Positions 32,589 through 63,827 of a stretch of 64,000 nt of DNA are shown one piece after another; the first letter of the stretch is position 1; every line of letters starts with the position of its first letter. The stretch spans positions 105,265 to 169,264 of the forward strand of contig JACTMI010000032.1 of NCBI GenBank assembly GCA_014584695.1. The letters are read 5' to 3'. The DNA comes from Acidobacteriota bacterium (GTDB lineage: Bacteria; Acidobacteriota; Thermoanaerobaculia; Multivoradales; JAGPDF01). A model generated the notes under the pieces. It saw only the letters and a program-made list of their open reading frames with translations. It was not told the origin of the DNA and searched no databases. The translations under genes were made by a program, and so were the position numbers.

Positions 32589-32820
32589 TCTACTAGCGGA
32601 GCCGCACCATCGCAGCGTCCCCCTGCGCAGCCGCGCCCATCGCAGCCCTGACCGCGCCTCCCGAAGGAAGCCGCCCGAGAAGGAGAAAGAAGCGGAGGGC
32701 CAGGAAGCTGGAGAAGCAGGGAAGGCGAAGAAGGGCCAGGGAGAAGAAGCAGAAAAGCAGCAAAGCAGAAAAGCAGAAAACCTCCATAGAATGGGGTCGA
32801 GGCGACCGGGTCGCTCGCTG

Positions 32821-33147
32821 CTAGCCCGCGTCGCCGCTCGGCCGAGTCACCGCCGCCGCATCCTCGAGGACATCCCCTTCAATGGGCAGTTGCTTTTCGA
32901 ACCCGGCCCGCGCCGCCGCTCGGCCGAATCACCGCCGCCGCATCCTCGAGGACATCCCCTTCAATGGGCAGTTGCTTTCCGAACCCAGCTCGCGCCACCG
33001 CTTCGCCGAGCTACCGGCGCCGAGCCTTCCGAGCCATCCCCTTCTATGGGCAGTTGCCTTTCGGGCTCATCCCGCGCCAGCGCCTCGGCGAGTCACCGGC
33101 GCCGGACTTTCCGAGCCATCCCCTTCTATGGGCAGTTGCTTTTTGCA
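32821..33147. repeat. 82-bp direct tandem repeat, 4 copies (...TCACCGCCGCCGCATCCTCGAGGACATCCCCTTCAATGGGCAGTTGCTTT...)
   Basis: ATGGGCAG recurs at 32882, 32964, 33046 and 33128 (period exactly 82). Copies 1-2 are nearly identical, copies 3-4 diverged. Confidence 0.7.
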
Positions 33148-39865: not shown

Positions 39866-41005
39866 ATGCGCGCACGCACCCTCGACGCCCCCTCCGAAGT
39901 GTCTCCCTCCGGCCCGCTCTGCCCGGTGGCGGAGCGGGTACGAGCCGAATCGGTCCGCCTCTGGGGGGCCGACCGGATGGTGACGATCGTGGGGCAGTCG
40001 CGCGCCATCGAGGAGCCGCTGGAGCGGCTGCTCAAGGTGGCGCGCTTTCACGAGCCGGTCCTGCTGCTGGGCGAGAGCGGTGTCGGCAAGGAGTCGTTCG
40101 CGGCGGCCTTGCACGCGCTCGGCCCCCGCTCCGACAAGCCGTTCGTGTCGGTCAACTGCCCGCAGTATCAGGAGGGCAATCTCACCGTCTCGGAGCTCTT
40201 CGGCCACAAGCGCGGCAGCTTCACCGGCGCCACCAACGATCGCCGGGGCTGCTTCGAGACCGCCGACGGGGGCTCGATCTTCCTCGACGAGGTCGCCGAC
40301 CTGCACATGTCCGCGCAGACCATGCTGCTGCGGGCGCTGGCTAACGGCGAGTTCCAGCCACTCGGCTCGGAGGTGACGCGCAAGGTGAGCGTCCGGGTCG
40401 TCTCGGCGACCAATCGAGACCTGAACAGCCTCGCCGCCGACGAGCGCTTCCGGCGCGACCTGCTGTTCCGGCTCCGCTACTTCCAGGTCGAGATTCCGCC
40501 GCTGCGGTCGCGCGGCGACGACTGGCTGCTGCTGGCGGAGTACTTCCTGGCGCGGCTGGCTCGCCGCTACGGCGTGCGCAAGTGCCTGTCGGGGGACTCG
40601 ATCCGGCTGCTGGAGCGCTACGACTGGCCGGGCAACGTGCGCGAGCTGATCTCGGTGGCGACCGCCGGCTACGCCCTCTCGGACGGCGACCGGATCGAAC
40701 CGCGCGATTTCGTCGATCACCTCGAGCAGGAGAACCGGCCGCGCGGTTCCGAGGTCGACGACCTCTACCGCCGGCTCTGCCGCGAGAGCGGCGATTTCTG
40801 GCAGCTGGTGCAGGAGCCCTTCCTCGACCGCGAGCTGTCGCGGCGCGAGGTGCGGACGCTGGTCGCCCGCGGCCTGCGCGAGTCGCGCGGCAGCTATCGC
40901 CGGCTGCTCGAGGTCTGGAAGATCCCCGCCGAGACCTACCAGAAGTTCATGGACTTCCTGCGCCACCATCGCCTCAAGCCGAGCAACCTGGAAGACGAGA
41001 ACTGA
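39866..41005 (+). CDS. Sigma-54-dependent transcriptional activator with no receiver or sensory domain (PspF-like)
   Basis: GESGVGKE Walker A, ELFGHKRGSFTGA (GAFTGA variant), RELISV. Only ~35 aa precede the AAA+ core. Confidence 0.8.
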   Translation: MRARTLDAPSEVSPSGPLCPVAERVRAESVRLWGADRMVTIVGQSRAIEEPLERLLKVARFHEPVLLLGESGVGKESFAAALHALGPRSDKPFVSVNCPQYQEGNLTVSELFGHKRGSFTGATNDRRGCFETADGGSIFLDEVADLHMSAQTMLLRALANGEFQPLGSEVTRKVSVRVVSATNRDLNSLAADERFRRDLLFRLRYFQVEIPPLRSRGDDWLLLAEYFLARLARRYGVRKCLSGDSIRLLERYDWPGNVRELISVATAGYALSDGDRIEPRDFVDHLEQENRPRGSEVDDLYRRLCRESGDFWQLVQEPFLDRELSRREVRTLVARGLRESRGSYRRLLEVWKIPAETYQKFMDFLRHHRLKPSNLEDEN

Positions 41006-41032
41006 CCCTCCCGGTCGGGTAGAGTCCGGGCC

Positions 41033-42532
41033 GTGACCCGGACCCGCGCGGTGGTCTTCGACCTCTACGGGACCCTGCTCGAGATCGGGCGGCCCGTCTT
41101 CCAGGAGCGACTGCCCCGCATCGAGGGGATCTCCCGTCGCCAGTGGGTGGAGTTCCAGCGCGAGGACCTGCTGGTGCGCCCGTACGTCTCCCGCGAGGCG
41201 TTCGTCGACGCCATCGTCGCGCGGTTCGGCGGCGGCGCCGACGGCCACCGGGCGACGCTGCTCGACTTGCTCGAGGTCGAGCTCGCCTCCGTCCACGCCG
41301 TCGAGGGCGCAGGGTCCCTGCTCGCCTTCCTGCGCCGGCGCGGCCTCAGGCTCGGCCTGATCACCAACTCCGCCTCGCCCTACCGGGAGCCGCTCGAGCG
41401 GCTGGGGCTCGCGGAGCTGTTCGATGCGGTGCTCTTCTCGTGCGACGCCGGCGCGCGCAAGCCCGAGGAGCGGCTCTACCGCGACACGCTGGCGCGCCTC
41501 GGGGAGGCGCTGACTGCCGATCCGGCGGCGGCGCTGATGGTCGGCGACTCGCTCGGCAATGACGTCCGGGCGCCCGGACGCGCCGGCATGCGGGGGCTGC
41601 TGATCGGCGCCAGTGGCACCGCCCGCGCGGTGCCGCGGCTGGCCGACCTCGGCTGGCTGGATCTCGACACCCTCGAGCCCCTGCTGCCCGAGGGCGCCGA
41701 GATGGTGCTCGCCGGCGAGCGCCTGTCGGTCGAGCGGCGCGAGTCGCTCGACGACGCCGACCAGGGGCGCTACAACCTGGTCGCTCGCTTGCGCCTGCGC
41801 ACCGCGCGGGGGCTCGAGAAAGTGGCCTACGTCAAGCGCTTCCTGCTGCCGGAGTCGATCGAGGTCGAGCGCCTGATGGCGCGGCTGCTCGACGAGATCC
41901 ACGTCGGTTCCTGTCCCAACGTTCTGGTGGGTACCGGACTGGAGCCCCTGCTGGTGGTCGCCGAGGCGCCGGGGGTCAAGCTCGAGGCCGCGCGCGGCGA
42001 GCCGGCATACGCCCGCGAGGTGGGCCGCCACGCCGCCGCGGCCTACCTGTTCGCCAACGCCGACCTGCGGCCGCGCAATGCCTTTCTCGACGGCGAGGGG
42101 GCGGGTCTGCGGATGACCATGGTCGACTACGAGCACTGCCTGCTCAACCTGGCGATCGACCTCGAGGGCATCCCCGATCCGCTCGACCGCGACGCGCTCG
42201 AGGCGCTCGGCCGCGTCGAGCTCGAGCGCCGCGTGGCGCGCCGCGTACTCGCCGACGCCCACATGCGGCGCGCCTACCGCGCCTTCTTGGGCCCCCACGC
42301 CAAGGACGCCGGACTCGCCCGCGCCTTCCGCGCCGGCTGGATGGAGGTGCACGGCAAGGCGCGGGTCCTGCGTCAGGTCGTCGTCGACCTGCTCGAAGCC
42401 AGGCTGGCGGCCGATCCCCCGCTGGTCGTCGGCACCCATGCCTATCGCCGCGCATTCCTCCGTCTCGACCTCGAGGACGTCCTCTCCCGGCTGGACGAGG
42501 ACCCCGATCGCGCCTGCGACCGCTGCTTCTGA
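41033..42532 (+). CDS. HAD-superfamily hydrolase fused to a C-terminal domain of unknown function
   Basis: VVFDLYGTLL (DxD motif I) and MVGDSLGNDV (motif IV), then ~300 aa of unrecognised sequence. Confidence 0.6.
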   Translation: MTRTRAVVFDLYGTLLEIGRPVFQERLPRIEGISRRQWVEFQREDLLVRPYVSREAFVDAIVARFGGGADGHRATLLDLLEVELASVHAVEGAGSLLAFLRRRGLRLGLITNSASPYREPLERLGLAELFDAVLFSCDAGARKPEERLYRDTLARLGEALTADPAAALMVGDSLGNDVRAPGRAGMRGLLIGASGTARAVPRLADLGWLDLDTLEPLLPEGAEMVLAGERLSVERRESLDDADQGRYNLVARLRLRTARGLEKVAYVKRFLLPESIEVERLMARLLDEIHVGSCPNVLVGTGLEPLLVVAEAPGVKLEAARGEPAYAREVGRHAAAAYLFANADLRPRNAFLDGEGAGLRMTMVDYEHCLLNLAIDLEGIPDPLDRDALEALGRVELERRVARRVLADAHMRRAYRAFLGPHAKDAGLARAFRAGWMEVHGKARVLRQVVVDLLEARLAADPPLVVGTHAYRRAFLRLDLEDVLSRLDEDPDRACDRCF

Positions 42533-42565
42533 ACCGCGATACTCCTGTCGGTCCTGTCCGCGATG

Positions 42566-42626
42566 GAGCCACGGCTCCAGAAGTTCGGGTCCCGGCTCCG
42601 TCCGGCTCCGTGCAGGATCCGGCTCG
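42566..42626. promoter_or_regulatory. Candidate enhancer: palindrome GGAGCC-N2-GGCTCC plus direct repeats CCGGCTCCG, TCCGGCTCCG and ATCCGGCTCG, 50-110 bp upstream of a sigma-54 promoter
   Basis: Read directly. The same TCCGGCTCCGG motif recurs, inverted, upstream of the second precursor gene (44341-44353). Confidence 0.3.
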
Positions 42627-42674
42627 ATTTCCATAACTGCTTTGAAGTGAGTTGTTTGTCGCGTTCGATGCGGT

Positions 42675-42689
42675 TGGCACCGGGGTTGC
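42675..42689 (+). promoter_or_regulatory. Sigma-54 (-24/-12) promoter TGGCAC-cgggg-TTGC
   Basis: Perfect consensus spacing, 83 nt upstream of the precursor A start codon. Confidence 0.65.
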
Positions 42690-42771
42690 CATAGGAAGAG
42701 GCAGAACGGCGAAACCCGCCGGGGCACCTCCGGATGAACCGGCTGGCGCCACACAACGAGGAGCAACGAAA

Positions 42772-43079
42772 ATGGAGATGTCGCGCGGTGAGATGCAGGA
42801 CCTGCTGAACAAGTTCGCGGCCCAGAACCCGAAGTACCGCGAGGCCCTGCTGTCGGACCCGAAGTCGGTGGTCCAGAAGCAGTTCGCCCTCAGCCTGGAG
42901 GGGGTCACGGTCAAGGCGGTCGAGGAGAGCCCGAACACCTTGTACGTCATCGTTCCGCGCGCGGCGGCGGCCGGTGAGCTCGACGACTCCGACCTCGAGA
43001 AGGTCGCGGGCGGCGGCGACATCAACGTCAAGCTGGGCGGCGAGGTCAGCTGCTCGCAGGGCAGATCAACCTCGGCTGA
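42772..43079 (+). CDS. RiPP precursor peptide A with NHLP-type leader and GG site; 3' end uncertain (-1 frameshift against a conserved TGA at 43077-43079)
   Basis: GAGGAG RBS. Leader ...LLSDPKSVVQKQFALSLEGVTVKAVEESPNTLYVIVPRAAAAGELDDSDLEKVAGGG, then DINVKLGGEVSCSQG. Frame 0 has no stop until 43596, running antisense through the aminopeptidase gene. The end is set at the conserved TGA. Confidence 0.55.
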
Positions 43080-43181
43080 GCCGGGCGCAGACATCAGGGG
43101 CCGCGGCGGGCGACCGAAAGGTCCCCGCCGCGGCTCTTTCCCTTTCGAGCGGCTGGCAGGTCGGCGCAGGTTGCGCCGGGC

Positions 43182-44309
43182 TCAGCCTTCGCCGGCGAGC
43201 AGGCGCTCCGGATTGAGCCCCTCGAGATCGGGCACCACGAAGCGGCCGTCCTTGCGGATCAGGACGTCATCGAACCAGATCTCGCCGCCGCCGTCGGCCG
43301 CTTCCATCCGCAGCACCAGGTCCCAGTGGACCTGCGAACGGTTGCCGTTGTCCGCGGCGGCGTACGCCTGGCCCGGCGTGAAGTGGATCGAGCCGGCGAT
43401 CTTCTCGTCGAACAGGATGTCCTTCATCGGTGCGGTGATGTGGGGGTTGAAGCCGAGCGCGAACTCGCCGACATGGCGCGCGCCGTCGTCGGTGTCGAGC
43501 AGGCGGTCGAGCGCCTCGCCGGCGCTGCTCGAGGCCTCGACGATGCGGCCGCCGCGAAAGACGAAGCGGACGTTCTCGTGCGTCACCCCGCGGTAGAGCG
43601 ACGGCGTGTTGTAACGGATGGTCCCCTCCACGCTATCGCGCACCGGCGCGGTGTAGACCTCGCCGTCCGGCAGGTTGCGCCGACCGTCGCAGGCCACCGC
43701 GCCGATACCCCTGACGCTGAAGGAGAGGTCGGTGCCCGGAGCGGTGATGCGAACGCGGTCGGCCGCCTCGAGGCGCGCCTTGAGCGGCGCCATGGCGCGC
43801 GACATCCGGGCGTAGTCGAGCGTGCAGACCCGGAAGTAGAGCTCTTCGAAGGCCGCGGTCGAGGTGCCGGCCAGCTGGGCCATCGAGGGACCCGGCCAGC
43901 GGGTCACCACCCAGCGCGTGCGCGGGACGCGAAGGTCCAGGTGGACGCGCTTCCAGAGCAGCGCCTCGAACAGCGCCATCCGCTCGCTCGGCACGTCGGC
44001 GAGCTCCGAGACGTTGTCGCCGCCGCGCAGGCCGATGTAGGCGTCCACCTGGCGCATCACGGCTTCCTCGCCGTCGGCGATCAGCGTCCACTGCTCGGTG
44101 GTCCCGGCCCGCAGCAGCTCGCGGGTCACCGGCGCGCTCTTCAGCAGCACCGCCGGCAGCGCCCCGGCGGCCGCCGCCGCGCGCACCAGGGTGGTCACGA
44201 ACGAGGTCGGCACGTCGATCGCCTCGATCAGCAGCTTGTCGCCCGGAACGAGGGCGCAGGAGTAGCGGACGAGCGTTTCGGCGAGCTTCTGGTGGCGGAG
44301 GTCGGTCAT
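43182..44309 (-). CDS. M29-family aminopeptidase (AmpS/PepS-like)
   Basis: 376 aa from the ATG at 44309; M29-like organisation (HVGEFALG...). It is divergent from and sandwiched between the two precursor genes. Confidence 0.65.
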   Translation of the reverse strand: MTDLRHQKLAETLVRYSCALVPGDKLLIEAIDVPTSFVTTLVRAAAAAGALPAVLLKSAPVTRELLRAGTTEQWTLIADGEEAVMRQVDAYIGLRGGDNVSELADVPSERMALFEALLWKRVHLDLRVPRTRWVVTRWPGPSMAQLAGTSTAAFEELYFRVCTLDYARMSRAMAPLKARLEAADRVRITAPGTDLSFSVRGIGAVACDGRRNLPDGEVYTAPVRDSVEGTIRYNTPSLYRGVTHENVRFVFRGGRIVEASSSAGEALDRLLDTDDGARHVGEFALGFNPHITAPMKDILFDEKIAGSIHFTPGQAYAAADNGNRSQVHWDLVLRMEAADGGGEIWFDDVLIRKDGRFVVPDLEGLNPERLLAGEG

Positions 44310-44522
44310 CGGAGGAGGTCCCGGTGGGGTCGTGCGGCGCCCGGAGCCGGAGCGCGCCGCGGGTTCTCGAAGCAACTCTAGCCGCGATTCGAGCGGCTGG
44401 CTCTTCCGGCATGGAGCGCTCGCTCCATCGATTCGAGCGAGGGCTCCGCTCAGCGCGGCGCCGGCAGGACCGCGGAGCGATGCGCGCGTTGAAAGCATTG
44501 AACTTACGCATTCGAGGCCGAT

Positions 44523-44537
44523 TGGCATCGGGGTTGC
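44523..44537 (+). promoter_or_regulatory. Sigma-54 (-24/-12) promoter TGGCAT-cgggg-TTGC
   Basis: Same architecture and spacing as the 42675 promoter, 82 nt upstream of the precursor B start. Confidence 0.6.
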
Positions 44538-44618
44538 GATAGGGAGAATCGTTCGGCGCACGACGCCGAGCCCGGGCGGGATGAACTCGCCGGGCACGAG
44601 ACCAGAGGAGCAACGCCA

Positions 44619-44928
44619 GTGGAGATGTCACGCGGTGAGATGCAGGACCTGCTGAACAAGTTCGCGTCCCAGAACCCGCAGTATCGCGATGCGCTGATCA
44701 AGGACCCGAAGTCGGTGGTGGAGAAGCAGTTCAACATCAGCCTCTCCGGCGTCACCGTCAAGGCCGTGACCGAGGCCCCCGACACGCTGTACGTGATCGT
44801 TCCGCGTGCTGCGGCGGCCGGTGAGCTCGACGACTCCGACCTCGAGAAGGTCGCGGGCGGCGGCGACATCAACGTCAAGCTGGGCGGCGAGGTCAGCTGC
44901 TCGCAGGGCCCAGATCAACCTCGGCTGA
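44619..44928 (+). CDS. RiPP precursor peptide B (paralog of A, GTG/ATG start); 3' end uncertain (+1 frameshift against the same conserved TGA at 44926-44928)
   Basis: Leader about 85% identical to A and an identical core start DINVKLGGEVSCSQG. Frame 0 would read 345 nt into lanM, which is implausible. Confidence 0.55.
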
Positions 44929-45040
44929 GCCGAGGCGGATCCACGAAGCCCGATTCCGGGGGCCCGTGGACGGGCTGCAAGGCCCGCCACGCGGCCCCCG
45001 GTTGTTTCGTGGGCCCCTGCTCGGAGAACCCAAGCTGGCC

Positions 45041-48000
45041 ATGTCGACGATCGCCACTGCGTGCCTGCGTGCCGAGACGCTGTTCGAGCGGCTCGCGCGG
45101 CTGGCCCGCGCTTTCGACGCTCCTCCGGCCTTGGAGGATGCCGCGGTGGCCGCGGCGCTCGAGCCGTGGCGGCGGGCGGTCGCGCGCGGCGACGGCGAGG
45201 CCTTCGCGCGCCGGCTCGCCTGGGACGGCATCGACCCGCGCGTGGCGGCGCTCGCGTTCGTGGAACCGGTAGGAGCGCCCGACGGCCCATGGTGCGTGAA
45301 CATGGAGCGCTGGCTCCATGCCGTGGCGACAAGGGGTCTCGCGAGCTCCGGCAGCGAGCTCGCCGCCGGGCTGCCGTTCGGAGAGTGGGTCGCCAGCTGG
45401 GTCGCAGAAGCGGCCTCCCGCGCCCGGCAGAAGCTGCCGGCGCTCGACGACCTGCTGACGCCGGCGGCGTGGCTGCAGTGGCAGCGGGCCCTCGGCGGGC
45501 GGCTCGCCTGGATCGCCGCGCTGCCGCTCTACGAGCGCTTCGACCTCGAGCGATCGGCGCGGGGCGAAGCGGGTGCGCTAGCCCGATTTCTCGCGGCGCT
45601 CGGCGCCAGCCCGACGGCGTCCGGCCTCGAGCTGCCGGGACTGGTCCGGCAGCTCGCCGGCCGGGCCGAGGACTGGATCGATGCCGGTGTGGAGTGGATC
45701 GGTCGCTTGGCCGCCGATCGCGCCGGCTTCGCACTCGCCTTCGAGGGGGACGCCGATCCCGGTCGGGTCGTGGCGGTGGAGGCCGGGCTCTCCGATCCTC
45801 ACGCCCGTGGCCGCCGTGTCCTGGCGCTCACCTTCGAGTCGGGGCTCGAGGTGATCTACAAGCCCCGGCCGGTCGACCTGGAGTCGGCCTGGTGGCAGCT
45901 CGCGAGCGAGCTCGCCGAGGCCGGTTTCGAGGCCGCCCCGCTGGCGGCGCGGACGCTCGCCCGGCCGGGCTACGGCTGGATGGAAAGGGTGGCCGCCGGC
46001 GGGGTCGACAGCGCGAGCGAGGCCGAGTCCTGGTTCCGCCGCGCGGGCGCGCTGGTCGCGCTGGCATGGGTGCTCGGCGGCCGCGACCTCCACGCCGAGA
46101 ACCTGATCGCCGACCGGCGCGGACCGGTCCTGGTGGACGCGGAGATGCTGCTCGCTCCGGAGCCGGGCGCGCTGCTGCGCAGCGGCCCCGACTCCGTGCT
46201 GGCGACCGGCCTGGTGGCCGATCCCGCGGCCACGGCGGGGCCCGGAGCCTGGGGCTACGCCGGCCTCGACCTGCCGGAGCCGGGCGAGCTGCCCGAAGCC
46301 GACCGGCACTGGGAGAACCTCGGCACCGACCGGCTTCGGCTGGCCTGGCGACGTTTCCCCAGGGCCCTCAAGACCAACGTTCTGAGGTGGCGCGGGCGGC
46401 CCCAGCGTCCCGAGGCCTGGCGGGAGGCCGTGTTGGAGGGCTTCGACCTCGGCATGGCGGCGATTGGCGAGCAGCGGGAGCGGATCGAGCGCTGGTTGGC
46501 GGCGCGCGGCGACACGCCGACGCGCGTTCTGTTCCGTCCGAGCGCCCAGTACGCGACCACGGTCGCCCTGTCGGTCCGTCCCCGCTACGCCAACGACGGG
46601 CTGGCCGGCAGCCTGCTGCGCGAAGCGCTCCTGCAGCCGCTCGTCGGCCTCGCCGAGCGGCCGGCGCTCTGGCCCCTGATCGCCGACGAGCGGGCCGCGC
46701 TCGAAGCGCTCGACCTGCCGGTCTTCCACCTGCCGGCCGGTGCGACGGCGCTCACCAACTCGGCGGGAGAAAGGATCGAGGGCCTGTTCGAGCAGAGCGG
46801 GATCGCGGCCGCTCGCGCGCGGCTCGCCGAGCTCGACGCGGAGAGAATCGAGCGCGAACGCCGCCACCTCGCGGCCGCGCTCGAGCCGCGCCGGCTCGGG
46901 CGCGCGGAGGAGGAGTCCCGGCTCGCGGCCGCGGCGGCCGAGATCGCCGGCGCGCTGGCGATGTCGAAGGCCTTCGCCGCCGTGCCCGCGCCCGGCGCGT
47001 CGCTGCGCGAGCTCGCCCTCTACGGCGGCGCCGCCGGGCGCGCGCTGTTCGCGGCGGGGGCTTGGCGGGCCACCGGCGGAGCGGCCTGGGCATCGATTGC
47101 CGGAGAGATCGCGTCCGGCCTCGTGCGCGCTCTCGCGGCGGTGCCGGCGGAGGCGGAGGGACAGCCATCACGGCCTGGGGGCACCGACGGCTGGGGCTCG
47201 ATTCTCTGGACCTTGGTCACCCTCGCGGAACTGCTCGAGCAGCCGGAGCTGCTCGCGGGCGCGGCGGCGGCCGGCGAGCGTCTCGAAGCCACGCCACGGC
47301 GGCCGGATCTCTGGGGATTCGACCTCGCCGCGGGCGAGGCGGGGGCGTTGCTCGGCTGGCTGGCCCTGGCGCAGGCGAGCGGGGAGGCCGCGGCGCTCGA
47401 GCGCGCGCGCGACAGTGGGCAGCGGCTGCTGTCGAGCCAGCTCCGGTCGGGTCCGGATGCCGGAGGCTGGCCGGCGCCCGGGGGCTCGCCGCCGCTCGCG
47501 GGCTTCGCGCACGGCGCCTCGGGCATCGCCCGTGCCCTCGATGCGCTGGCGGCCGCGACCGGCGAGGGGGAGTATCGCGACGCGGCCGGCGCGGCGCTGC
47601 GCTTCGAGAGCTCGTTGTTCGATCGCCAGCGCGGGGACTGGCCAGCGCGGATCGCCGGCGGCGGTCGCCGGTTCCTGTGCAGCTGGTGCCACGGAGCGCC
47701 GGGGGTGGCGATCGCCCGCGCGCTCCGGCTGGCGGCAGGGGGCGAGGATCGGGCGGCGGCTACGGAGCTCGCGACGGCGCTCGCCACGCTCGCTGGGGCG
47801 CCGCTGCCCGAAGTCGACCACCTCTGCTGCGGCACGGCGGGACGCCTGGCGGCGCAGACGGTCGCCGGGCGGTGGGGCGGCGGCGAGGAAGCGCTGGCGG
47901 CGGGACGGCGGCTGGCGCGCCGGGCCCTGGCGCGCGCTGAAGGCAGCGGCGGCTGGCGGATTCCGGCCGAGCCGCCGGCGGAGCGTCCGGATCTCGGGCT

Positions 48001-48121
48001 GTTCCGAGGCTACCCGGGCCTCGCCTGGAGCCTGATCTCGCTCACCGACGCGGGCGGACCGCTGCCGCTGGTGGCGGCGCTCGAGCTGCCGGCGGAGCGC
48101 CGCCGGAGGAGCCAGCAATGA
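45041..48121 (+). CDS. lanM: Class II lanthipeptide synthetase LanM (dehydratase plus LanC-like cyclase)
   Basis: Kinase-like dehydratase motifs (DLHAENLIA...VLVDAEM). C-terminal LanC zinc-ligand motifs GFAHGASG, SWCHGAPG and CCGTAG. An alternative GTG start at 44966 is possible. Confidence 0.85.
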   Translation: MSTIATACLRAETLFERLARLARAFDAPPALEDAAVAAALEPWRRAVARGDGEAFARRLAWDGIDPRVAALAFVEPVGAPDGPWCVNMERWLHAVATRGLASSGSELAAGLPFGEWVASWVAEAASRARQKLPALDDLLTPAAWLQWQRALGGRLAWIAALPLYERFDLERSARGEAGALARFLAALGASPTASGLELPGLVRQLAGRAEDWIDAGVEWIGRLAADRAGFALAFEGDADPGRVVAVEAGLSDPHARGRRVLALTFESGLEVIYKPRPVDLESAWWQLASELAEAGFEAAPLAARTLARPGYGWMERVAAGGVDSASEAESWFRRAGALVALAWVLGGRDLHAENLIADRRGPVLVDAEMLLAPEPGALLRSGPDSVLATGLVADPAATAGPGAWGYAGLDLPEPGELPEADRHWENLGTDRLRLAWRRFPRALKTNVLRWRGRPQRPEAWREAVLEGFDLGMAAIGEQRERIERWLAARGDTPTRVLFRPSAQYATTVALSVRPRYANDGLAGSLLREALLQPLVGLAERPALWPLIADERAALEALDLPVFHLPAGATALTNSAGERIEGLFEQSGIAAARARLAELDAERIERERRHLAAALEPRRLGRAEEESRLAAAAAEIAGALAMSKAFAAVPAPGASLRELALYGGAAGRALFAAGAWRATGGAAWASIAGEIASGLVRALAAVPAEAEGQPSRPGGTDGWGSILWTLVTLAELLEQPELLAGAAAAGERLEATPRRPDLWGFDLAAGEAGALLGWLALAQASGEAAALERARDSGQRLLSSQLRSGPDAGGWPAPGGSPPLAGFAHGASGIARALDALAAATGEGEYRDAAGAALRFESSLFDRQRGDWPARIAGGGRRFLCSWCHGAPGVAIARALRLAAGGEDRAAATELATALATLAGAPLPEVDHLCCGTAGRLAAQTVAGRWGGGEEALAAGRRLARRALARAEGSGGWRIPAEPPAERPDLGLFRGYPGLAWSLISLTDAGGPLPLVAALELPAERRRRSQQ

Positions 48122-49092
48122 CGACGCCGCAATTCGAGGTCCGCCGGCTCGCATCGCCGGTCGATCCCGCCTTCAGCGCCATGACCTTTCCGCTCTATCG
48201 CCGCCTGCTTTCGCTCGAGCCGACGGTGCGCCACCCCGAGCAGGGCGACCCGCGGCGGATCCAGCCGGTCGCCATCGGCGCCTTCGAGGCGGAGCGGCCG
48301 GTCGGCCTGATCGTGGCCGAGCAGCCCCTCGGGGACAGCGAGCCGGCGGAGCTGCTCTCCCTGTTCGTGGCCGAGGGCGAGCGCGGCCGGGGGGTCGGAG
48401 GCGCCCTGGTCGCCGCGGCCGAGCAGGCCCTCGCGGCCGCGGGGGTCGCGGAGGTGCGCGCGGTGTGGACGGCCGGCAAGCCGGCGATCGAGGCGCTGGA
48501 GCGGATTCTCGCCCGCCACGGCTGGACGCCGCCGGCGGCCCGCACGGTTTCGGCCCGCTTCCGGCCCGAGAAGATGCTCACCCTGCCGCTGTTCTCTCCT
48601 CGTCACCTGGCGTCCCTGGATCCGGGATTCGAGATCTTCCCCTGGGCGGAGCTGCCGGCCGAGGAGCTCGCCGCCCTGCGCGCCTCGAACGAGGCCCGGC
48701 ACTGGATTTCCGACGGTCTCGAGCCCTGGAGCTACCGCGGCGGCGCCGGCTACGACCCGGCGACCAGCGTCGGCGCGCGCCACCAGGGGCGGCTGGTCGG
48801 CTGGGTGCTGACCGAGCGAATCGACGACCGCCTGCTGCGCTGGACCGTGAGCTTCCTGGACAAGCGTCTGTCCCGGCGCGGCCGCATCGTGCCGCTCTAC
48901 AAGTCGTCGCTCGAGCGGGCGGTGGCGGCGGGCTACGAGCTCTGCCTGTTCGTGACCCCCGTCCGGTTCCCCAACATGGTGCGCTTCATCCACAAGTGGA
49001 TCGCCCGCCGGGCGGAGTTCATCGGCGAGACTCGCTCCGCCGGGCGCCGGCTCACCCCGTCGGGCGCCGGCGCGCCCCGCCTTGAATCCTGA
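48118..49092 (+). CDS. GNAT-family N-acetyltransferase, translationally coupled to lanM (ATGA)
   Basis: GERGRGVGGALV acetyl-CoA-binding motif. The start overlaps the lanM stop. Confidence 0.65.
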   Translation: MTTPQFEVRRLASPVDPAFSAMTFPLYRRLLSLEPTVRHPEQGDPRRIQPVAIGAFEAERPVGLIVAEQPLGDSEPAELLSLFVAEGERGRGVGGALVAAAEQALAAAGVAEVRAVWTAGKPAIEALERILARHGWTPPAARTVSARFRPEKMLTLPLFSPRHLASLDPGFEIFPWAELPAEELAALRASNEARHWISDGLEPWSYRGGAGYDPATSVGARHQGRLVGWVLTERIDDRLLRWTVSFLDKRLSRRGRIVPLYKSSLERAVAAGYELCLFVTPVRFPNMVRFIHKWIARRAEFIGETRSAGRRLTPSGAGAPRLES

Positions 49093-49212: not shown

Positions 49213-51276
49213 ATGAGAGCCGTGTGCCCGCGTAGGTCCAGTGCATGGGTACGGGCGGCGATGGCCGCCACGTGGATGACGATGGCCGCATCGCTCGCCG
49301 GCGCGCAGGCGCGCGAGCCGATCACCTACGAGCCGCCGACTTTCCAGTACGGCGAGGGCCGGATCTCGCTCCTGGAGTCGGTTCGATTGACGCTGCAGAA
49401 CGACCCCAAGCTCCTGCTCAAGGACGCCGACGCGCGGCTGCGCGAGGGCGTGGCGCAGGAGCTGCGCGGCGCTTTCGACTGGGTGCTCAAGGGCGAGATC
49501 GCCTGGGATCACCGGGAGCAGGAGCTGACCGACACGGCCCGCAAGACCGAGGTCGACAAGCGGCGCAAGGCCGAGGTCAACGAGCGCGACACCTGCAACG
49601 AGCGCGACCGTCAGCGCGAGATCCTGCAGACCCTGCGCGACGAGCTGGCCGGTGTCGACGACGGCGTCACGCTGGCGCCGCCGGACACTTCGCTCGCCAA
49701 GCAGCTCCAGTTCTTCGACATCCTGATCGCCCAGGCCCAGGATCCGGTGCTGCGCGACTCGATCATCGGCCAGAAGGTGAGCTTCCTGCAGACCGAAGTC
49801 GCGGCGCGCGAGGCCGTGGTCGCCAACCTGGAGCGCGGTTGCGTCCAGGCCGGAATCGACCGGGAGCGGCTGGGCCGGGCTCCCGAGTTCGAGTACTTCG
49901 AGCAAGCCAAGCTCGACCTGCGGGCGAGCCGGACCTTCCGCTCCGGCGTCGTGCTGACGCCGTTCTTGACCGGCCAGTACGACAAGACCCAGTTCGATGG
50001 CAAGCGCAACGGTCCCGAGGAGCAGATCTTCATCCTCGAGCGCAACGACGCGGGCCAACTGGTGGACGTGCCGCTCGAGACCAGCCTCGGGCCGGTGACT
50101 CGGACCATCGACTTCGGCGGCAAGGGGGTCAAGGACCTCTACCAGGCCTCGGTCGGCTTCGAGGTCAACGTGCCGATGCTGCGCGGTCGCGGCGCCGACG
50201 CGGTGGCCGCGCGCGAAGAGGCGGCGCTGCGCGACGCCGAGGCCGCGGGCCTGGCGGTCAAGCACACCGCGGCCGAGTCGGTGCTGCGGACCGCGACCGC
50301 GTACTGGACGCTGCTCGCGAGCCAGGAAAGGGTCCGGGTCCTCGCCAACGCGGTCGCGCTCGAGCAGCGCCTGGTCGAGATGACCCAGGCGCTGATCGAC
50401 GGCCAGGAGATGCCGCGCGCCGAGCTGCCCCGCGCCCTCGCGGCCGAGGCGAACGCCCGCTCGCAGCTCGAATCGGCCCGCCGCGAGCTGGTCAAAGCCC
50501 GCCTCGAGCTGGCGCTCGCGATGGGGGTCGGAGTGGAGTCGGAAGCCAACGCTCCCCTCGCCGAGGGCCCCTTCCCGATGGTCCCCAAGCCGGATGAGAT
50601 CTCGGCGCTGTCCGACCGGGGGCTCGCCCTCGCCGCGGTCGACCGGCGCTTCGATCGCCGCTCGGCCCTGGTGTCGAGCGAGGCGCGGCGGATCGAGACG
50701 CGCGGCGCGCTGCTCGACCAGAAGAGCAAGCTGGACCTCGGGATCACGGTGTCGAGCCGGGCGATCGGCGAGGACAGCCTGTCGAACGCCACCGACACCT
50801 GGGCCAATCCGAGCTGGCGGCTGAAGCTCACTACCGAGCACCCCTTCCGCAACAACGAGCGCGCCGGCCGCTATGCCCAGTCGGTGGCCCGGTTCGACCA
50901 GCAGACGATCCAGACCGGCGACCTGGACCGCAACATCAAGCTCAACGTGGTGCTCGCCCGCCGGTCGCTCGAAGAGGCGATCGCCCGCCACGACGCGGCG
51001 GTCGAGGCCGCCGAGCTCTTCCACCAGACGGTCGAGGCGGAGCTCGAGAAGCTCCGGCTCGGCTCCTCGACGCTGGTCGACGCCATCGTCACCGAGCAGC
51101 AGCAGACGCAGGCCAACCTCAGTCTCATCGCGGCCCAGCAGGAGGTCGCCACCCTGCTCGCCCGGCTCCGCTTCGAGACCGGGACGCTGGTCGACGACAC
51201 CGACGCGGGCTTCTACGTCGACGAGCCGCGGCTGATCTCGCTGCCGGTCGAAGCGGCGGCTGGAGGCGCCCTGTGA
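49213..51276 (+). CDS. TolC-family outer-membrane efflux protein 1
   Basis: AGGAGG RBS, signal peptide, two coiled-coil/beta-barrel repeats typical of the outer-membrane efflux family. Confidence 0.7.
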   Translation: MRAVCPRRSSAWVRAAMAATWMTMAASLAGAQAREPITYEPPTFQYGEGRISLLESVRLTLQNDPKLLLKDADARLREGVAQELRGAFDWVLKGEIAWDHREQELTDTARKTEVDKRRKAEVNERDTCNERDRQREILQTLRDELAGVDDGVTLAPPDTSLAKQLQFFDILIAQAQDPVLRDSIIGQKVSFLQTEVAAREAVVANLERGCVQAGIDRERLGRAPEFEYFEQAKLDLRASRTFRSGVVLTPFLTGQYDKTQFDGKRNGPEEQIFILERNDAGQLVDVPLETSLGPVTRTIDFGGKGVKDLYQASVGFEVNVPMLRGRGADAVAAREEAALRDAEAAGLAVKHTAAESVLRTATAYWTLLASQERVRVLANAVALEQRLVEMTQALIDGQEMPRAELPRALAAEANARSQLESARRELVKARLELALAMGVGVESEANAPLAEGPFPMVPKPDEISALSDRGLALAAVDRRFDRRSALVSSEARRIETRGALLDQKSKLDLGITVSSRAIGEDSLSNATDTWANPSWRLKLTTEHPFRNNERAGRYAQSVARFDQQTIQTGDLDRNIKLNVVLARRSLEEAIARHDAAVEAAELFHQTVEAELEKLRLGSSTLVDAIVTEQQQTQANLSLIAAQQEVATLLARLRFETGTLVDDTDAGFYVDEPRLISLPVEAAAGGAL

Positions 51277-53324
51277 GATCCCTTGCCGCCAACTTCCTGG
51301 CGGCGGGGGCGCTGCTCTTCGCGATCGAGCCGGCGCGAGCCCAGGTGCTCTCGGCGGCCGATGCGGTGAGCGAGACGCTCGCCCACGACCCCAGGGTCGC
51401 CCTCGCGCTGGCCCAGGTCGCGGAGCGCCGCGGCCAGTACCAGGAGTTCACCGGGACCTTCGACGGCGCCGTGTTCTTCAACAGCCAGGTCGACTACACG
51501 CGCCAGGGACTCGCCGGCGAGGTGCTCAAGGAGGAGACCAAGCGACGGGTGCAGCTCGAGCTCGTCGACCGCTTCTTCACCAACGCGGCGAACTCGATCA
51601 ACTCGATTCTCGATGGTGGCGATATCGACGAGACCAGCCTGCTGTTCATCGACACGGCGCAGCGCAATCTCAACGGCTGCTCGCCCACTCAGACCAAGGT
51701 GGAGATCGACCTCGGCCTGGACCTCGAGGGCAACGACCAGGGCACGGTCTTCCTCTGCCTGAACGCGGCCGAGAACTTCGGCGCGGTGCAGGCGATCGGC
51801 CTCGACCTGGCGAACCAGGGGACTCTGTCCACGGATTCGCTCCGCACGCTCTACTTCTTCAGCAAGCTGACCGGGCTCACCGGGCCGCTCGAGGACTTCC
51901 GGCGCGAGACCACGGCGCTGCTCAACGATCAGGGGCGGATCGCGCTGCGCATCGTCCGCCAGGTCGCCGACGGCGCGCGCTTCGCGCGCGCCCGGCTGGG
52001 CGACATGCCGGAGGAGCACGAGCTGATCGACTTCCAGAATCAGCTCGGCTACCGCCATCGCCTGCGCAACGGCATCGGCATCACGCCGACGCTCGAGCTG
52101 CGGGCCACCGAGGAGAACTTCGCCGGCAAGCTGCGCATCGTGCAGTTCGGCGATTCCACCAAGGCCAACCTGTTCACCGCCACGGCGCGCATCGCTTTCG
52201 ACATGCCGCTGGCGCGCAACCGCGGCGAGGCCGCGGTGCGGGCGTCGGAGCTGGCGGCGCAGGCGAACCTGCGGGCCGCCGAAGCGCTCGCGGTGCAGAC
52301 CGCTTCGGACCAGGCGCTCGAGACGCTCACCGCTTACTGGGAGCTGGCGGCGGCCGAGGAGCGGGTCGCCGTGCTCGAGCGTTCGCTGGCGCTCAAGACG
52401 GAGATCGACGGCGCGGTGCGCGACCTGATCGAAGGCCAGGAGCTGCCGGGGGTCGAGCGGCTCCGCAGCTCGGCGCGGGTCGCGGAGGCGCGCGGTCAGT
52501 TGGCGGCGGCGCGGCAGCAGGCCGCGACGGCACGGGTCGAGCTGGCGCGCGCGATGGGCGCCCGCGACGATCCGGGGGCGGAGGCCGGCTTGCGGACCGA
52601 GGGTCTCGCCGACTACGCGGCGCTGCCGCTGGTCGGCGGCGATGACGCGCGGCCGCTGGTGGCGGCCGCGATCGCGAGGCGCGCCGACATCGCCGCCAAC
52701 GACCGCTTCGTCGAAGCCAACCAGATTCTCGAGAAGGCGGCCCGGCTCAACCTGAAGCCGGACGTGACGCTGGCGCTGAACATCTCCTACTCCGGGTTCG
52801 AGGAGACGTTCGAAGAGCGCTACTACGACGTCGAGGGATTCTGGAAGGCCGCGTCGGGCAAGGTCGCGGGGCCGAGCTACGGCCTGGCGCTCCGGTTCAC
52901 CATACCGGTCGGCAACCACGAGGCCCGCGGGCGGCTGATGCAGGCGGAGTCGAAGACGGGGACGGCGCGCATCGATCGCGCCGACCTCGAACGGACCATC
53001 GCGCTCAAGGTCAACGAGGCGGCCGCGTCGCTCGACCGCTCGGCGCGCGAGCTCGAGGCGCGGCTCGCCCACCTGACGCACCAGCAGCGGACGGTGGACG
53101 ACAGCCTCGAGCGGCTGCGCGGCGGGGACCTCTCGGTGCTCGACGTGCTGACCAGCGAGGACCAGCTGACCGAAGCGAAGCTGGGCTGGATCGAGGCGGC
53201 GCGGGCCTACGCCGAGCTGCAGACCCGGTTGCGCTACGAGACCAACACGCTGCTCGCCGATTCGCCATTGGACGCGGATCCGCGGTCGCTGTCGCTGCGG
53301 CCGTTCACGGAGCCGGCGCTCTAG
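51273..53324 (+). CDS. TolC-family outer-membrane efflux protein 2
   Basis: Signal peptide and the same bipartite architecture. ATGA-coupled to TolC 1. Confidence 0.7.
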   Translation: MRSLAANFLAAGALLFAIEPARAQVLSAADAVSETLAHDPRVALALAQVAERRGQYQEFTGTFDGAVFFNSQVDYTRQGLAGEVLKEETKRRVQLELVDRFFTNAANSINSILDGGDIDETSLLFIDTAQRNLNGCSPTQTKVEIDLGLDLEGNDQGTVFLCLNAAENFGAVQAIGLDLANQGTLSTDSLRTLYFFSKLTGLTGPLEDFRRETTALLNDQGRIALRIVRQVADGARFARARLGDMPEEHELIDFQNQLGYRHRLRNGIGITPTLELRATEENFAGKLRIVQFGDSTKANLFTATARIAFDMPLARNRGEAAVRASELAAQANLRAAEALAVQTASDQALETLTAYWELAAAEERVAVLERSLALKTEIDGAVRDLIEGQELPGVERLRSSARVAEARGQLAAARQQAATARVELARAMGARDDPGAEAGLRTEGLADYAALPLVGGDDARPLVAAAIARRADIAANDRFVEANQILEKAARLNLKPDVTLALNISYSGFEETFEERYYDVEGFWKAASGKVAGPSYGLALRFTIPVGNHEARGRLMQAESKTGTARIDRADLERTIALKVNEAAASLDRSARELEARLAHLTHQQRTVDDSLERLRGGDLSVLDVLTSEDQLTEAKLGWIEAARAYAELQTRLRYETNTLLADSPLDADPRSLSLRPFTEPAL

Positions 53325-53354: not shown

Positions 53355-54512
53355 ATGTTCGGCGGAGGTCCCGAGAAGCTGCTGCGCAAGGCGGCGATCG
53401 AGAAGATGTCGTCGCCGGAGCAGCTCGACATGGCGATGCGGGTGACCTCGCCGATGGGCTGGGTGGCGCTGTCGGCGATCGGGGTGGCCCTGGTCGCCGG
53501 CATCGTCTGGAGCATCGTCGGCCGCATTCCCGAGCAGGTCGACGCGCAGGGGGAGCTGCTGCGCGGGGATCGTGTCGGCGCGGTGACGGCGATCGCCTCG
53601 GGCCGGCTCAAGGACGTGGTCGTCCGCATGGGAGACAACATCGAGGTCGGCGATCTCGTGGCCCGGCTCGCGCTGCCGGACATCGAGGCGCAGATCGAGA
53701 AGGTGAAGGCGGACATCCAGGACCTGGAGGCCCGGCAGCGGGTGCAAAGCGGCGAGACCAGCGCCGTGGTCGCCGGCTACCGGTCCAAGCTCTCCGGGCT
53801 CTACGCGCAGCGCCGCAACATGCAGCAGCTGGTGGAGAAGGGGCTGCGCACGCAGAAGGACCTGCTGCAGATCGACGCCCAGATCGCCGACACGCAGGCC
53901 CAGATCGCCCAGACCCAGGGCGGCAGCGACCAGCGCGACCTCCAGGTCGACGACAAGCGGCGGGAGCTGATCCGGCTCGAGTCCCAGCTGGCCGCGACCT
54001 CGGAGCTGCGCTCCTCGGTACCCGGCAGGGTGGTCCAGATCCAGGTCGCGGCGGGGCAGCCGGTGCAAGCAGGAGATTCGGTCGTGCTGATCGAGGACGA
54101 GAGCCTGCCGCTGCACGCGCTGATCCTGATCCCGGGCGTGCAGGGCAAGCGGGTCGTTCCCGGCATGGAGGTCAAGGTCTCGCCGACCGACGTCAAGTCG
54201 GAAGACCACGGCTTCATGCTCGGCAAGGTGACTTCGGTCTCGGACAACGCCGTGGCGCCGCAGGAGCTCGACCGGATTCTCAACAACCAGGCGAAGACCC
54301 AGAAGTACATGGAGCAGGCCCCTTTCATCGCCTTCGCGGACCTGATTCCGGATCCGGCCCCCGGCAACGTCTCCGGCTTCAAGTGGACCTCCGCTCTCGG
54401 CCCGCCGAAGCGAATCACCAGCGGCACGCCCTGCGTCTTCCAGGTGATCGTCGACGAGCGCCGGCCGATCTCCTACGTCGTCCCGATGGTCAAGAAGACG
54501 CTGGGAATCTGA
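53355..54512 (+). CDS. HlyD-family periplasmic adaptor (NHLP-bacteriocin secretion type)
   Basis: GGAGGAGG RBS, N-terminal transmembrane anchor, long coiled-coil, C-terminal beta-domain. Confidence 0.8.
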   Translation: MFGGGPEKLLRKAAIEKMSSPEQLDMAMRVTSPMGWVALSAIGVALVAGIVWSIVGRIPEQVDAQGELLRGDRVGAVTAIASGRLKDVVVRMGDNIEVGDLVARLALPDIEAQIEKVKADIQDLEARQRVQSGETSAVVAGYRSKLSGLYAQRRNMQQLVEKGLRTQKDLLQIDAQIADTQAQIAQTQGGSDQRDLQVDDKRRELIRLESQLAATSELRSSVPGRVVQIQVAAGQPVQAGDSVVLIEDESLPLHALILIPGVQGKRVVPGMEVKVSPTDVKSEDHGFMLGKVTSVSDNAVAPQELDRILNNQAKTQKYMEQAPFIAFADLIPDPAPGNVSGFKWTSALGPPKRITSGTPCVFQVIVDERRPISYVVPMVKKTLGI

Positions 54513-54525
54513 GCCCGCGCCGCGC

Positions 54526-56736
54526 GTGAGCAACCCCGCCGCCCCGCCCGCCGCCGAGAGCGAGGCCCAGCCCAAGCCGAGCGGTCCGCCCAGCCGGCGG
54601 GTCAAGGTCCCGACCGTCATCCAGATGGAGGGCGTCGAGTGCGGCGCCGCTTCGCTGGCGATGATCCTCGCCTACTTCGGCCGCATCGCGCCGCTGGAGG
54701 AGCTGCGGGTCGAGTGCGGCGTTTCGCGCGACGGCTCCAAGGCTTCCAACCTCCTGAAGGCGGCGCGCAAGTACGGCCTGGAGTCGAAGGGCTTTAAGTA
54801 CGAGATCGAGCAGCTCTTCCCGCTCAAGTTCCCCTGCATCCTGTTCTGGAACGCCAACCACTTCCTGGTGCTCGAGGGCTTCCGGGGTGGCAAGGTCTAT
54901 CTGAACGACCCGGCGCAGGGGCCGCGCGTCATCACCATGGAGGAGTTCGACGCCGGCTTTTCGGGCGTCGTGCTGACTTTCGAGAAGGGGGCGGACTTCC
55001 AGCCCGGCGGCGACAAGCCGAGCATGTACCACGCGCTCCGGCGGCGCCTGGTCGGTTCCGAGGTGGCGCTGCTGTTCGTCCTGCTCTGCGGCCTGTTCCT
55101 GGTCGTGCCCGGACTGGTCATCCCGACGTTCTCGCGCATCTTCGTCGACGAGTATCTCGGCGCCGGCCGTGATTCGATCATCCGCCCGCTGCTGCTGGGC
55201 ATGGGGATCACCGCGCTCCTGAACATGGCGCTGACCGGGCTGCAGCAGCACTCCCTGCTGCGGCTGGAGACCCGTCTGGCGCTCAAGACCTCGGCGCAGT
55301 TCTTCACCCACGTGCTGCGCCTGCCGATCAACTACTTCGCGCAGCGCTTCGCCGGCGAGATCGGCTCGCGCGTGGCGATCAACGACAAGGTGGCGACGAT
55401 GGTCGGCGGCAAGCTCGCCACCACCGTCATCGACTGCATCCTGGTCGTCTTCTACGGCGCGTTGATGTTCCTGTACGACGGCATCCTGACCTCGGTCGTG
55501 ATCGCCCTGGCGTTGGCCAACATCGTGGCGATGAAGCTGGTCCAACGGGTCCGCACCGACGCTTCCCGGAGGCTGCAGGCGGACAAGGGCAAGCTGGTCG
55601 GCACCGCGATGTACGGCTTGAGGATGATCGAGACGCTCAAGGCGACCGGCTCCGAGCCCGAGTTCTTCGCCCGCTGGTCCGGCTACCAGGCCAAGTCGCT
55701 GCGCGCGCAGCAGGAGCTGCAACTCCTCTCCGAGATGATCAATGTGGTGCCGCAGCTGGTGACGACGCTGATCTCGGCGGTGGTCCTGCTGCTGGGCGGC
55801 CTGCGGGTGATGGACGGCGCGCTCACGGTCGGCATGCTGGTGGCCTACCAGACCCTGTCGGGGAACTTCACCAAGCCGCTCTCGAACCTGGTCAACTTCG
55901 GCGGTTCCTTGCAGGAGCTCGAAGCGGACATGAACCGCCTCGACGACGTGCTTCGCTACCCGCAGGACAAGACCTACGAGCGGGAGGACGTCGGCCGCGA
56001 GGACCGCCGGCTCAAGCTGCAGGGCAAGGTCGAGCTGCGCAACGTGACCTTCGGCTACAGCCCGCTCGAGAAGCCGCTGATCGAGGACTTCAACCTGGTC
56101 ATCCAGCCCGGCCAGCGGGTGGCGCTGGTCGGCGCCTCGGGCAGCGGCAAGTCGACGGTGGCCAAGGTCGTCTCCGGCCTCTACGAACCCTGGCGTGGCG
56201 AGGTGCTGTTCGACGACGTGGCCAGGACTCAGCTGCCGCGCCGCCTGCTCACCAACTCCCTGGGCATGGTCGACCAGGACATCTTCATGTTCGACGGCAC
56301 CATCCAGGAGAACGTGACGATGTGGGACGGCACCATCCCGCTCACCGCGGTGTCGACGGCGGCGCGCGACGCCGCCATCGACGAGGTGATCGAGACCCGC
56401 GAGGGGGCGTATGGCGCCAACGTGACCGAAGGCGGCTCGAACTTCAGCGGCGGGCAGCGCCAGCGGCTCGAGATCGCCCGCGCGCTGGTCGGCGGGCCGA
56501 CGGTGCTGATCCTCGACGAGGCGACGAGCGCGCTCGATCCGGCGACCGAGGTGGTGATCGACGACTCGACGCGGCGACGCGGCTGCACCACGATCATCAT
56601 CGCGCACCGCCTGTCGACGATCCGCGACTCCGACGAGATCATCGTCCTCGAGCGCGGCAAGATCGTCCAGCGCGGCACCCACGAAGAGATGAAGGACCAG
56701 GATGGCCCCTATGCCCGGCTCATCGGCGCCCACTAG
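54526..56736 (+). CDS. ABC exporter with N-terminal C39 bacteriocin-processing peptidase domain
   Basis: C39 catalytic Cys in VPTVIQMEGVECGAASLAMILAYFG, 6-TM domain, Walker A GASGSGKST, signature FSGGQRQRL. Confidence 0.85.
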   Translation: MSNPAAPPAAESEAQPKPSGPPSRRVKVPTVIQMEGVECGAASLAMILAYFGRIAPLEELRVECGVSRDGSKASNLLKAARKYGLESKGFKYEIEQLFPLKFPCILFWNANHFLVLEGFRGGKVYLNDPAQGPRVITMEEFDAGFSGVVLTFEKGADFQPGGDKPSMYHALRRRLVGSEVALLFVLLCGLFLVVPGLVIPTFSRIFVDEYLGAGRDSIIRPLLLGMGITALLNMALTGLQQHSLLRLETRLALKTSAQFFTHVLRLPINYFAQRFAGEIGSRVAINDKVATMVGGKLATTVIDCILVVFYGALMFLYDGILTSVVIALALANIVAMKLVQRVRTDASRRLQADKGKLVGTAMYGLRMIETLKATGSEPEFFARWSGYQAKSLRAQQELQLLSEMINVVPQLVTTLISAVVLLLGGLRVMDGALTVGMLVAYQTLSGNFTKPLSNLVNFGGSLQELEADMNRLDDVLRYPQDKTYEREDVGREDRRLKLQGKVELRNVTFGYSPLEKPLIEDFNLVIQPGQRVALVGASGSGKSTVAKVVSGLYEPWRGEVLFDDVARTQLPRRLLTNSLGMVDQDIFMFDGTIQENVTMWDGTIPLTAVSTAARDAAIDEVIETREGAYGANVTEGGSNFSGGQRQRLEIARALVGGPTVLILDEATSALDPATEVVIDDSTRRRGCTTIIIAHRLSTIRDSDEIIVLERGKIVQRGTHEEMKDQDGPYARLIGAH

Positions 56737-62795: not shown

Positions 62796-62846
62796 GGCGC
62801 AAGCTCCTCGAAAGGCCGTGGGGCGGCCATTGTAGCCCGGCTGCGG

Positions 62847-63281: not shown

Positions 63282-63288
63282 GGGCCAC

Positions 63289-63825: not shown

Positions 63826-63827
63826 CA

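Follow-up and report, generated by a model that had tools for sequence, protein, structure and literature searches.

The two precursor genes of a putative class II lanthipeptide cluster in an Acidobacteriota genome, here called copies A and B, are both frameshifted as written in the assembly, and we consider it probable that these frameshifts are an assembly artefact and that both genes are, in the organism itself, intact precursors of 108 codons with an NHLP-type leader. In the window, that is, the whole stretch of 64,000 nt that was analysed, copy A lacks 19 nt and copy B lacks 17 nt (Table 1), and these gaps would remove the codons for ALQTMI and shift the reading frame by -1 in A and by +1 in B.

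As assembled, the leaders of A and B are ~88% identical, and towards the ends of the genes two blocks are shared without any mismatch: a left block of 98 nt (100% identical; 42964-43061 in A and 44811-44908 in B), which ends in CTCGCAGGG, and a right block of 22 nt (43062-43083 in A and 44911-44932 in B), which is identical from CAGATCAACCTCGGCTGAGCCG onwards. No nucleotide separates the two blocks in A and the dinucleotide CC separates them in B, the sequence across the gap site being GGGCAGATC in copy A and GGGCCCAGATC in copy B. The identity ceases 4 nt past a shared TGA, located at 43077-43079 in A (-1 frame) and at 44926-44928 in B (+1 frame), whereas frame 0 remains open up to 43596 in A, antisense through the gene of an M29 aminopeptidase, and up to 45272 in B, into lanM. 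An earlier note on this DNA had described copies that are identical over their last ~100 nt and then diverge, that are both out of frame with the common TGA and that run on antisense through the aminopeptidase gene (A) or into lanM (B), and direct comparison confirmed it in all these points, the shared stretch extending over ~120 nt apart from the gap site. The gap in A can be placed at 43061/43062 or at 43062/43063, given that one C is ambiguous. The lost pieces correspond to positions 99-117 (A) and 100-116 (B) of an exact repeat of 139 nt in the intact form; the left junction thus falls 98 nt (A) or 99 nt (B) into this repeat, the right pieces measure 22 and 23 nt, the microhomology at the junctions is 0-1 nt, and the gap lengths differ by 2 nt between the copies. 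When compared with the TIGR03793 model (leader_NHLP, cutoff 50.9 bits), repaired copy A scored 52.4 bits over residues 8-81, and copy B as written scored 44.4 bits, under the cutoff, over the same span.

Table 1. Features of the precursor region and of the surrounding gene cluster (positions refer to the window).
Feature	Position	Strand	Remarks
HAD-like gene (499 aa), upstream of copy A	41033..42532	+	beside the precursor family in 11 orthologous loci
Sigma-54-type -24/-12 element TGGCACCGGGGTTGCC, upstream of copy A	42675..42690	+	TGGCAC-N5-TTGC
Precursor gene A (NHLP-type leader and core)	42772..43079	+	ATG start; interrupted by the 19-nt gap
Copy A arm of the exact A/B repeat	42964..43083	+	139 nt intact, 120 nt here
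Reported site in copy A, CTCGCAGGG joined to CAGATCAACCTCGGCTGA	43053..43079	+	19 nt CGCGCTGCAGACGATGATC (ALQTMI codons plus 1 nt) absent
GC-rich hairpin followed by CUCUUUCCCUUUC	43096..43138	+	17 nt past the copy A stop; -57 kcal/mol, z = -3.8
M29 aminopeptidase gene, between the precursors	43182..44309	-	Pfam PF02073, 171 bits; exact protein on 31 contigs
Sigma-54-type -24/-12 element TGGCATCGGGGTTGCG, upstream of copy B	44523..44538	+	TGGCAT form
Precursor gene B	44619..44928	+	GTG start; interrupted by the 17-nt gap (GCGCTGCAGACGATGAT) at 44909/44910
Copy B arm of the exact A/B repeat	44811..44932	+	139 nt intact, 122 nt here
GC-rich hairpin followed by GGUUGUUUCG	44956..45001	+	between copy B and lanM; -75 kcal/mol, z = -6.4
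LanM, class II lanthipeptide synthetase	45041..48121	+	intact; TIGR03897, 468.6 bits (cutoff 304)
GNAT acyltransferase (324 aa)	48118..49092	+	PF00583; start overlaps the lanM stop
Two outer-membrane efflux (OEP/TolC-like) genes	49213-51276, 51273-53324	+	PF02321
HlyD-type membrane-fusion protein	53355..54512	+	domain match
Peptidase-C39 ABC transporter	54526..56736	+	Peptidase_C39, ABC_membrane and ABC_tran on the identical Logan gene

The intact form of the precursor was recognized from its homologues. A search of the protein collection recovered 81 relatives, comprising 26 close homologues (72-87% identity) and 55 more distant ones, many of which carry PF02979. All 26 close homologues are exactly 108 aa long and end in SQGALQTMIQINLG or close variants, with the tail pattern GGxVxCxQG-ALQTMI-QINLG; among the 108-aa proteins there is one (P0008) that combines the exact leader of copy B with an intact core. 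Likewise, the precursor is uninterrupted in 39 of 39 orthologous loci from GTDB genomes across Acidobacteriota, and the end of the leader, DLEKVAGG, with its Gly-Gly, is invariant in 23 aligned homologues. The intact sequence at the site is GGGCGCGCTGCAGACGATGATCCAGATC, which contains no homopolymer. Relative to the homologues, then, the defect is best described as the loss of the ALQTMI codons (19 nt in A and 17 nt in B) and not as a single-C error. The TGA is the true stop in both copies, since the homologues end QINLG-stop and so does the intact allele of the same strain; the earlier note had already taken it as the genuine stop, in agreement with the QINLG ending of 26 out of 26 close homologues and with the strong hairpin that follows each TGA. 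Its explanation of the frameshift fared otherwise: what had been read as a miscounted homopolymer, with runs of one and three C, corresponds to the scars of the 19- and 17-nt gaps.

Independent assemblies of the same strain gave the same intact form. Logan contigs from many unrelated SRA runs, which were found by exact-protein look-ups and aligned to the window by BLAST, cover positions 40619-42813 and 43009-64000 (~23 kb) with 0 mismatches, and the sole indels are the two gaps. With respect to the window, a 17-nt gap was found against L001 (2387 nt), L015 and L016 (7328 nt) and L066 (11285 nt), and a 19-nt gap at ~43061/43062 against L005 (1671 nt), otherwise with 0 mismatches. Those Logan contigs that reach the site carry the intact CAGGGCGCGCTGCAGACGATGATCCAGATC at both loci (L001, L015, L016, L019 and L066 at B, L005 and L006 at A), the same strain having 20 nt between CAGGG and AGATC. 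In six others (L007, L008, L017, L018, L020 and L064) the first letters are CGATGAT, a stretch that belongs to the missing piece, and 14 further LanM contigs have neighbouring genes in common with L015. The deleted junctions, CTCGCAGGGCAGATC in A and CTCGCAGGGCCCAGATC in B, were present in no Logan contig reaching the site (six distinct LanM-carrying places plus 14 inferred from common neighbours, and four M29-carrying contigs), nor in the scans of JGI metagenomes. Among these, a gap-tolerant scan with a strain-specific anchor gave no match, and one with a looser anchor recovered two relatives, both intact, besides one chance match. An exact 50-mer scan of GTDB species genomes gave no match, the source genome not being among those searchable.

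At the protein level, the frameshifted ORFs (274, 272, 217 and 215 aa, considering two start choices for each copy) were absent from a collection of ~15 billion proteins, an absence that weighs little, as gene-calling programs may leave frameshifted ORFs uncalled, and the repaired A and B proteins were both present in the same collection. No precursor ORF that was searched for, in either its frameshifted or its repaired form, is listed under NCBI in it. One protein, P0100, with the exact leader of copy A and an intact core, was considered as a witness of copy A and discarded, since its gene occupies the copy-B position on a contig of a related strain (94% identity); it is L005 and L006 that attest copy A of this strain.

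Two other observations came from these contigs. This strain recurs, without a single mismatch over ~23 kb, in dozens of SRA runs with widely spaced accessions, and its HlyD protein appears in 93 blocks of the protein collection; the organism is an unusually clonal and widespread uncultured Acidobacteriota. In addition, four contigs from related strains with 94-98% identity (L002, L003, L004 and L067), compared with window regions 42417-43406 and 44298-45658, combine A-type flanks with B-type coding sequence or the reverse, and one related-strain contig has the exact leader of A in the copy-B position, which suggests that the paralogues undergo gene conversion or else that these Logan contigs are k=31 chimeras.

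Over ~23 kb the window departs from the independent assemblies at two places only, and the one long exact repeat of the region (139 nt when intact) contains both; their position within it, 98-99 nt from its start, leads us to favour an artefact over real strain-specific deletions. A left junction at 98/99 nt corresponds to k-1 if k is 99 or 100, or to the distance that a 100-nt read can span, and the same place would be affected in both copies because they have the same sequence and repeat structure, as expected of an error of k-mer assembly, read length, gap closing or polishing. A single k value for both junctions was considered and abandoned, given that the left one fits k = 99/100 and the right pieces of 22 and 23 nt do not. 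The present case resembles the repeat-associated misassemblies of draft or metagenome-assembled genomes, in which a short collapse or deletion arises inside near-identical paralogues, in that the discrepancies fall within near-identical paralogues, beside GC hairpins where Illumina contigs break, and it differs from them in its outcome, a small deletion, since such a repeat typically breaks the contig, as happened in all the Logan assemblies. Six Logan contigs from different runs (L009-L014) break at the GC hairpin 45-50 nt downstream (window positions 43123-43128), their ends running on into poly-C or Illumina adapter, which indicates that the hairpin after copy A is a short-read coverage break and a spot that is hard to sequence.

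The competing explanation, which we regard as unlikely, is that the sampled strain does carry the deletions, both precursors having been recently knocked out at the same site and the enzymes left without substrate, either by two independent small end-joining deletions at a break-prone or nuclease-targeted site or by a single deletion that gene conversion spread to the other copy, with a 2-nt indel thereafter. It gains from the fact that the window is otherwise perfect, with no general indel noise over 23 kb, so that an assembly error would need to be confined to the repeat, which may be called special pleading; moreover, a microhomology of 0-1 nt and slightly unequal lengths resemble end-joining scars, and the paralogues appear to exchange sequence, judging by the four mixed contigs described above. 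On the other hand, two or three rare events would have to fall on one site with nothing else changed in 23 kb, no independent-run contig reaching the site and no JGI scan contains the deleted junction, and the 98/99-nt figure has a technical meaning and no biological one. Nothing that would make the site a deletion hotspot, such as a repeat or a hairpin, is present, and the predicted folding of its DNA in the intact form was not unusual (z = -0.69). A donor copy of the missing 18-mer, allowing up to 3 mismatches, was not found within the window, which therefore holds no conversion cassette. A particular form of this explanation, in which both gaps are the scars of a sequence-specific double-strand break with end joining, or the outcome of strong selection for silencing the peptide with the enzymes kept, seems to us quite doubtful. 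In favour of an artefact, too, the cluster encodes LanM, the GNAT and the transport proteins in genes that are all intact.

The explanations put forward before the homologues were at hand attribute the frameshift to the sequence as written, and to these we give very little credence. As an assembly gap in a paralogous repeat, the anomaly is probably not a biological frameshift device. That a true GGGCC form, with a 20-aa core containing SCSQGQINLG, was hit by +/-1 homopolymer errors or by phase-variable slippage is highly improbable: the underlying arithmetic is right, since a version with two C reads SQGQINLG-stop and brings the TGA in frame in both copies, but such a form (GGGCCAGATC) amounts to a six-codon deletion (ALQTMI) that was absent among the 26 close and 55 distant proteins, the 39 orthologous loci and the matching Logan and JGI contigs. 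Inspection of the C-run length in the orthologous loci, as the earlier note had proposed, was carried out, and it yielded only uninterrupted precursors and no two-C form. In addition, the intact sequence has no C-run, the same strain having 20 nt there, and runs of one to three C are far below the lengths that are prone to slip; the proposal of phase variation fails in the same way, the runs being of 1 and 3 C and the independent assemblies differing by 17 and 19 nt. Among the causes that the earlier note had listed, a sequencing or assembly error came nearest to the truth, and slippage of a C-run as its route did not hold, again because the independent assemblies differ by 17/19 nt and not by single nucleotides.

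Programmed recoding, in which ribosomes would shift by -1 in A and by +1 in B so as to reach the TGA and make one peptide, has an almost negligible probability. A slip at GGC would indeed yield SQGQINLG-stop from both copies, but neither an X XXY YYZ heptamer nor a +1 shift-prone site is present (CAG GGC AGA in one copy and CAG GGC CCA in the other), one and the same sequence would need opposite shifts, and the product would lack the conserved Thr. Furthermore, a single frame encodes the peptide in the orthologues as well as in the same strain, and with no slippery heptamer and no conservation of the two-frame arrangement we discarded this earlier suggestion. Equally remote is the idea that the frame-0 extensions are real, longer cores. 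The open frames are long (274 and 217 aa), and the B extension is Cys-rich (GGSTKPDSGGPWTGCKARHAAPGCFVGPCSENPSWPC), with several Cys, Ser and Thr. Nevertheless, long frames free of stops are expected by chance at 71% GC, the extensions cross the hairpins and run antisense through the M29 gene (A) or into the beginning of lanM (B), and those of A and B are wholly different from each other and absent from homologues and protein collection; without conservation in the homologues, the alternative of longer cores was not sustained.

With the missing codons restored, the predicted true core is the 27-aa peptide GDINVKLGGEVSCSQGALQTMIQINLG (G1 to G27), cleaved after VAGG, a boundary that follows from the alignment position of VAGG shared with other subfamilies. 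The 20-aa core of the earlier note is not upheld, as it equals the unseen six-codon loss. The intact core contains Cys13, Ser12, Ser14 and a conserved Thr20, which in the close homologues lies inside the piece that is missing here, so that the window as written has no Thr20 and the frame is lost. Exactly one Cys is present in 73 of the 74 distinct cores of the family. The scarcity of Cys and Ser had been pointed out as an oddity for a LanM substrate; the single Cys is indeed there, but it is a family trait (73/74 cores) and the Thr lies in the missing piece. In most cores, including those of all close homologues, [N/Q]-[T/S] is found a few residues downstream of the Cys, and the conserved Thr20 is the likely ring partner of the single Cys. 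Of the 73 cores with exactly one Cys, 69 have a Lys or Arg ahead of it, an arrangement with which acylation would be compatible.

The genes around the precursors define what is, from its domain content, a class II lanthipeptide cluster with NHLP-type precursors. LanM combines a DUF4135 (PF13575) dehydratase domain with a LANC_like (PF05147) cyclase domain, the composition of a class II enzyme, and contains the motifs GFAHGASG, SWCHG and HLCCG, the CCG motif being typical of ProcM-type enzymes. The GNAT gene is syntenic with LanM in 16 orthologous loci, where the order precursor-LanM-GNAT recurs. The exact protein of the C39-ABC transporter is present in the protein collection. The HAD-like protein has an N-terminal HAD hydrolase domain followed by ~300 aa with no domain match, and its gene may be part of the cluster. 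Downstream, the 56711-64000 region encodes a second ABC transporter (1125 aa, with an N-terminal FHA / Yop-YscD domain), a DUF7005 protein, a HATPase_c_2 protein and a separate FHA protein, and a regulatory or immunity module of the cluster is a possible role for these genes. Elsewhere in the window there are tandem repeats with a unit of 82 nt (32823-33143; 3.9 copies, 81% matches, the period not being a multiple of 3), preceded by 4.8 copies of AGAAAAGC at 32742-32780, and with a unit of 49 nt (5665-5799; 2.8 copies, 96% matches). A Rfam scan of the whole window gave no match.

An element TGGCA[C/T]-N5-TTGC is kept upstream of both precursors while the flanking DNA diverges. In 17 of the 39 orthologous loci the same element precedes the precursor by ~95-160 nt, and it occurs almost nowhere else within those 12-kb loci, which suggests that the precursors may be under sigma-54 control. 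As for the GC-rich hairpins, the predicted fold after copy A looks like a terminator and the one after copy B like a terminator or an attenuator; a simple terminator scan made no call at the hairpins, despite their strong predicted folding.

From what is known of related families, the following pathway can be proposed for the intact system. Sigma-54-type promoters would drive each precursor, and the hairpin past each stop would limit read-through. LanM would dehydrate Thr20 and join it to Cys13, forming one methyllanthionine ring, and the GNAT would acylate a side chain, probably that of Lys6, as in selidamides. The C39-ABC transporter would then cut after VAGG and export the peptide via the HlyD and OEP proteins, and the M29 aminopeptidase may trim the new N-terminus.

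The case carries a caution, namely that a short precursor gene located in a paralogous repeat can be corrupted by assembly, and that a corrupted precursor makes its cluster look substrate-less or invites ideas of recoding or phase variation. Here, comparison with independent assemblies of the same strain resolved the case and gave the true product, as predicted above. The family is large in Acidobacteriota, with 74 distinct single-Cys, Lys-bearing cores accompanied by a GNAT as candidate lipidated peptides, and these acidobacterial single-Cys lanthipeptides are worth following up as natural products. A characterised member of this acidobacterial lanthipeptide family was not found in the literature.

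On its gene content, the locus would represent an uncharacterised NHLP-leader / LanM / GNAT lanthipeptide of Acidobacteriota, closest to the selidamides. The selidamides, to which kamptornamide, phaeornamide and the nostolysamides belong, are class II lanthipeptides made with an NHLP or Nif11 leader, in which a GNAT encoded in the cluster attaches fatty acids to side chains of Lys or Orn (PMC8784127; PMC13060382), and GNATs of Acidobacteria have been placed in the RiPP-associated GNAT clade, subclade b (PMC8784127). The present locus has in common with them an NHLP-type Gly-Gly leader, a LanM followed directly by a GNAT gene, a Lys near the N-terminus of the core and a C39-ABC exporter; its LanM carries the CCG motif, and the nostolysamide enzyme NpuM belongs to the ProcM clade (PMC13060382). 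A homologue search with the GNAT returned only acidobacterial and metagenome relatives, the selidamide GNATs KspN, PhaN and NpuN not being among them, and an arginase gene was not found in the cluster. Unlike the nostolysamides, which have four rings (PMC13060382), the core described here has a single Cys with the Thr C-terminal of it, allowing at most one 'reverse' ring. It also differs from the selidamides in its conserved hydrophobic tail x-Q-I-N-L, in an extra conserved HAD-like gene, in the M29 peptidase gene present in close relatives and in the sigma-54-type promoters. With the prochlorosins (ProcA/ProcM) the system shares a long structured leader (Nif11/NHLP) to be cleaved at Gly-Gly by a C39-ABC transporter, several paralogous precursors whose leaders are conserved at the end, and the CCG motif of LanM, whereas its cores are nearly invariant instead of hypervariable, only two copies of the precursor are present, and the cluster includes a GNAT.
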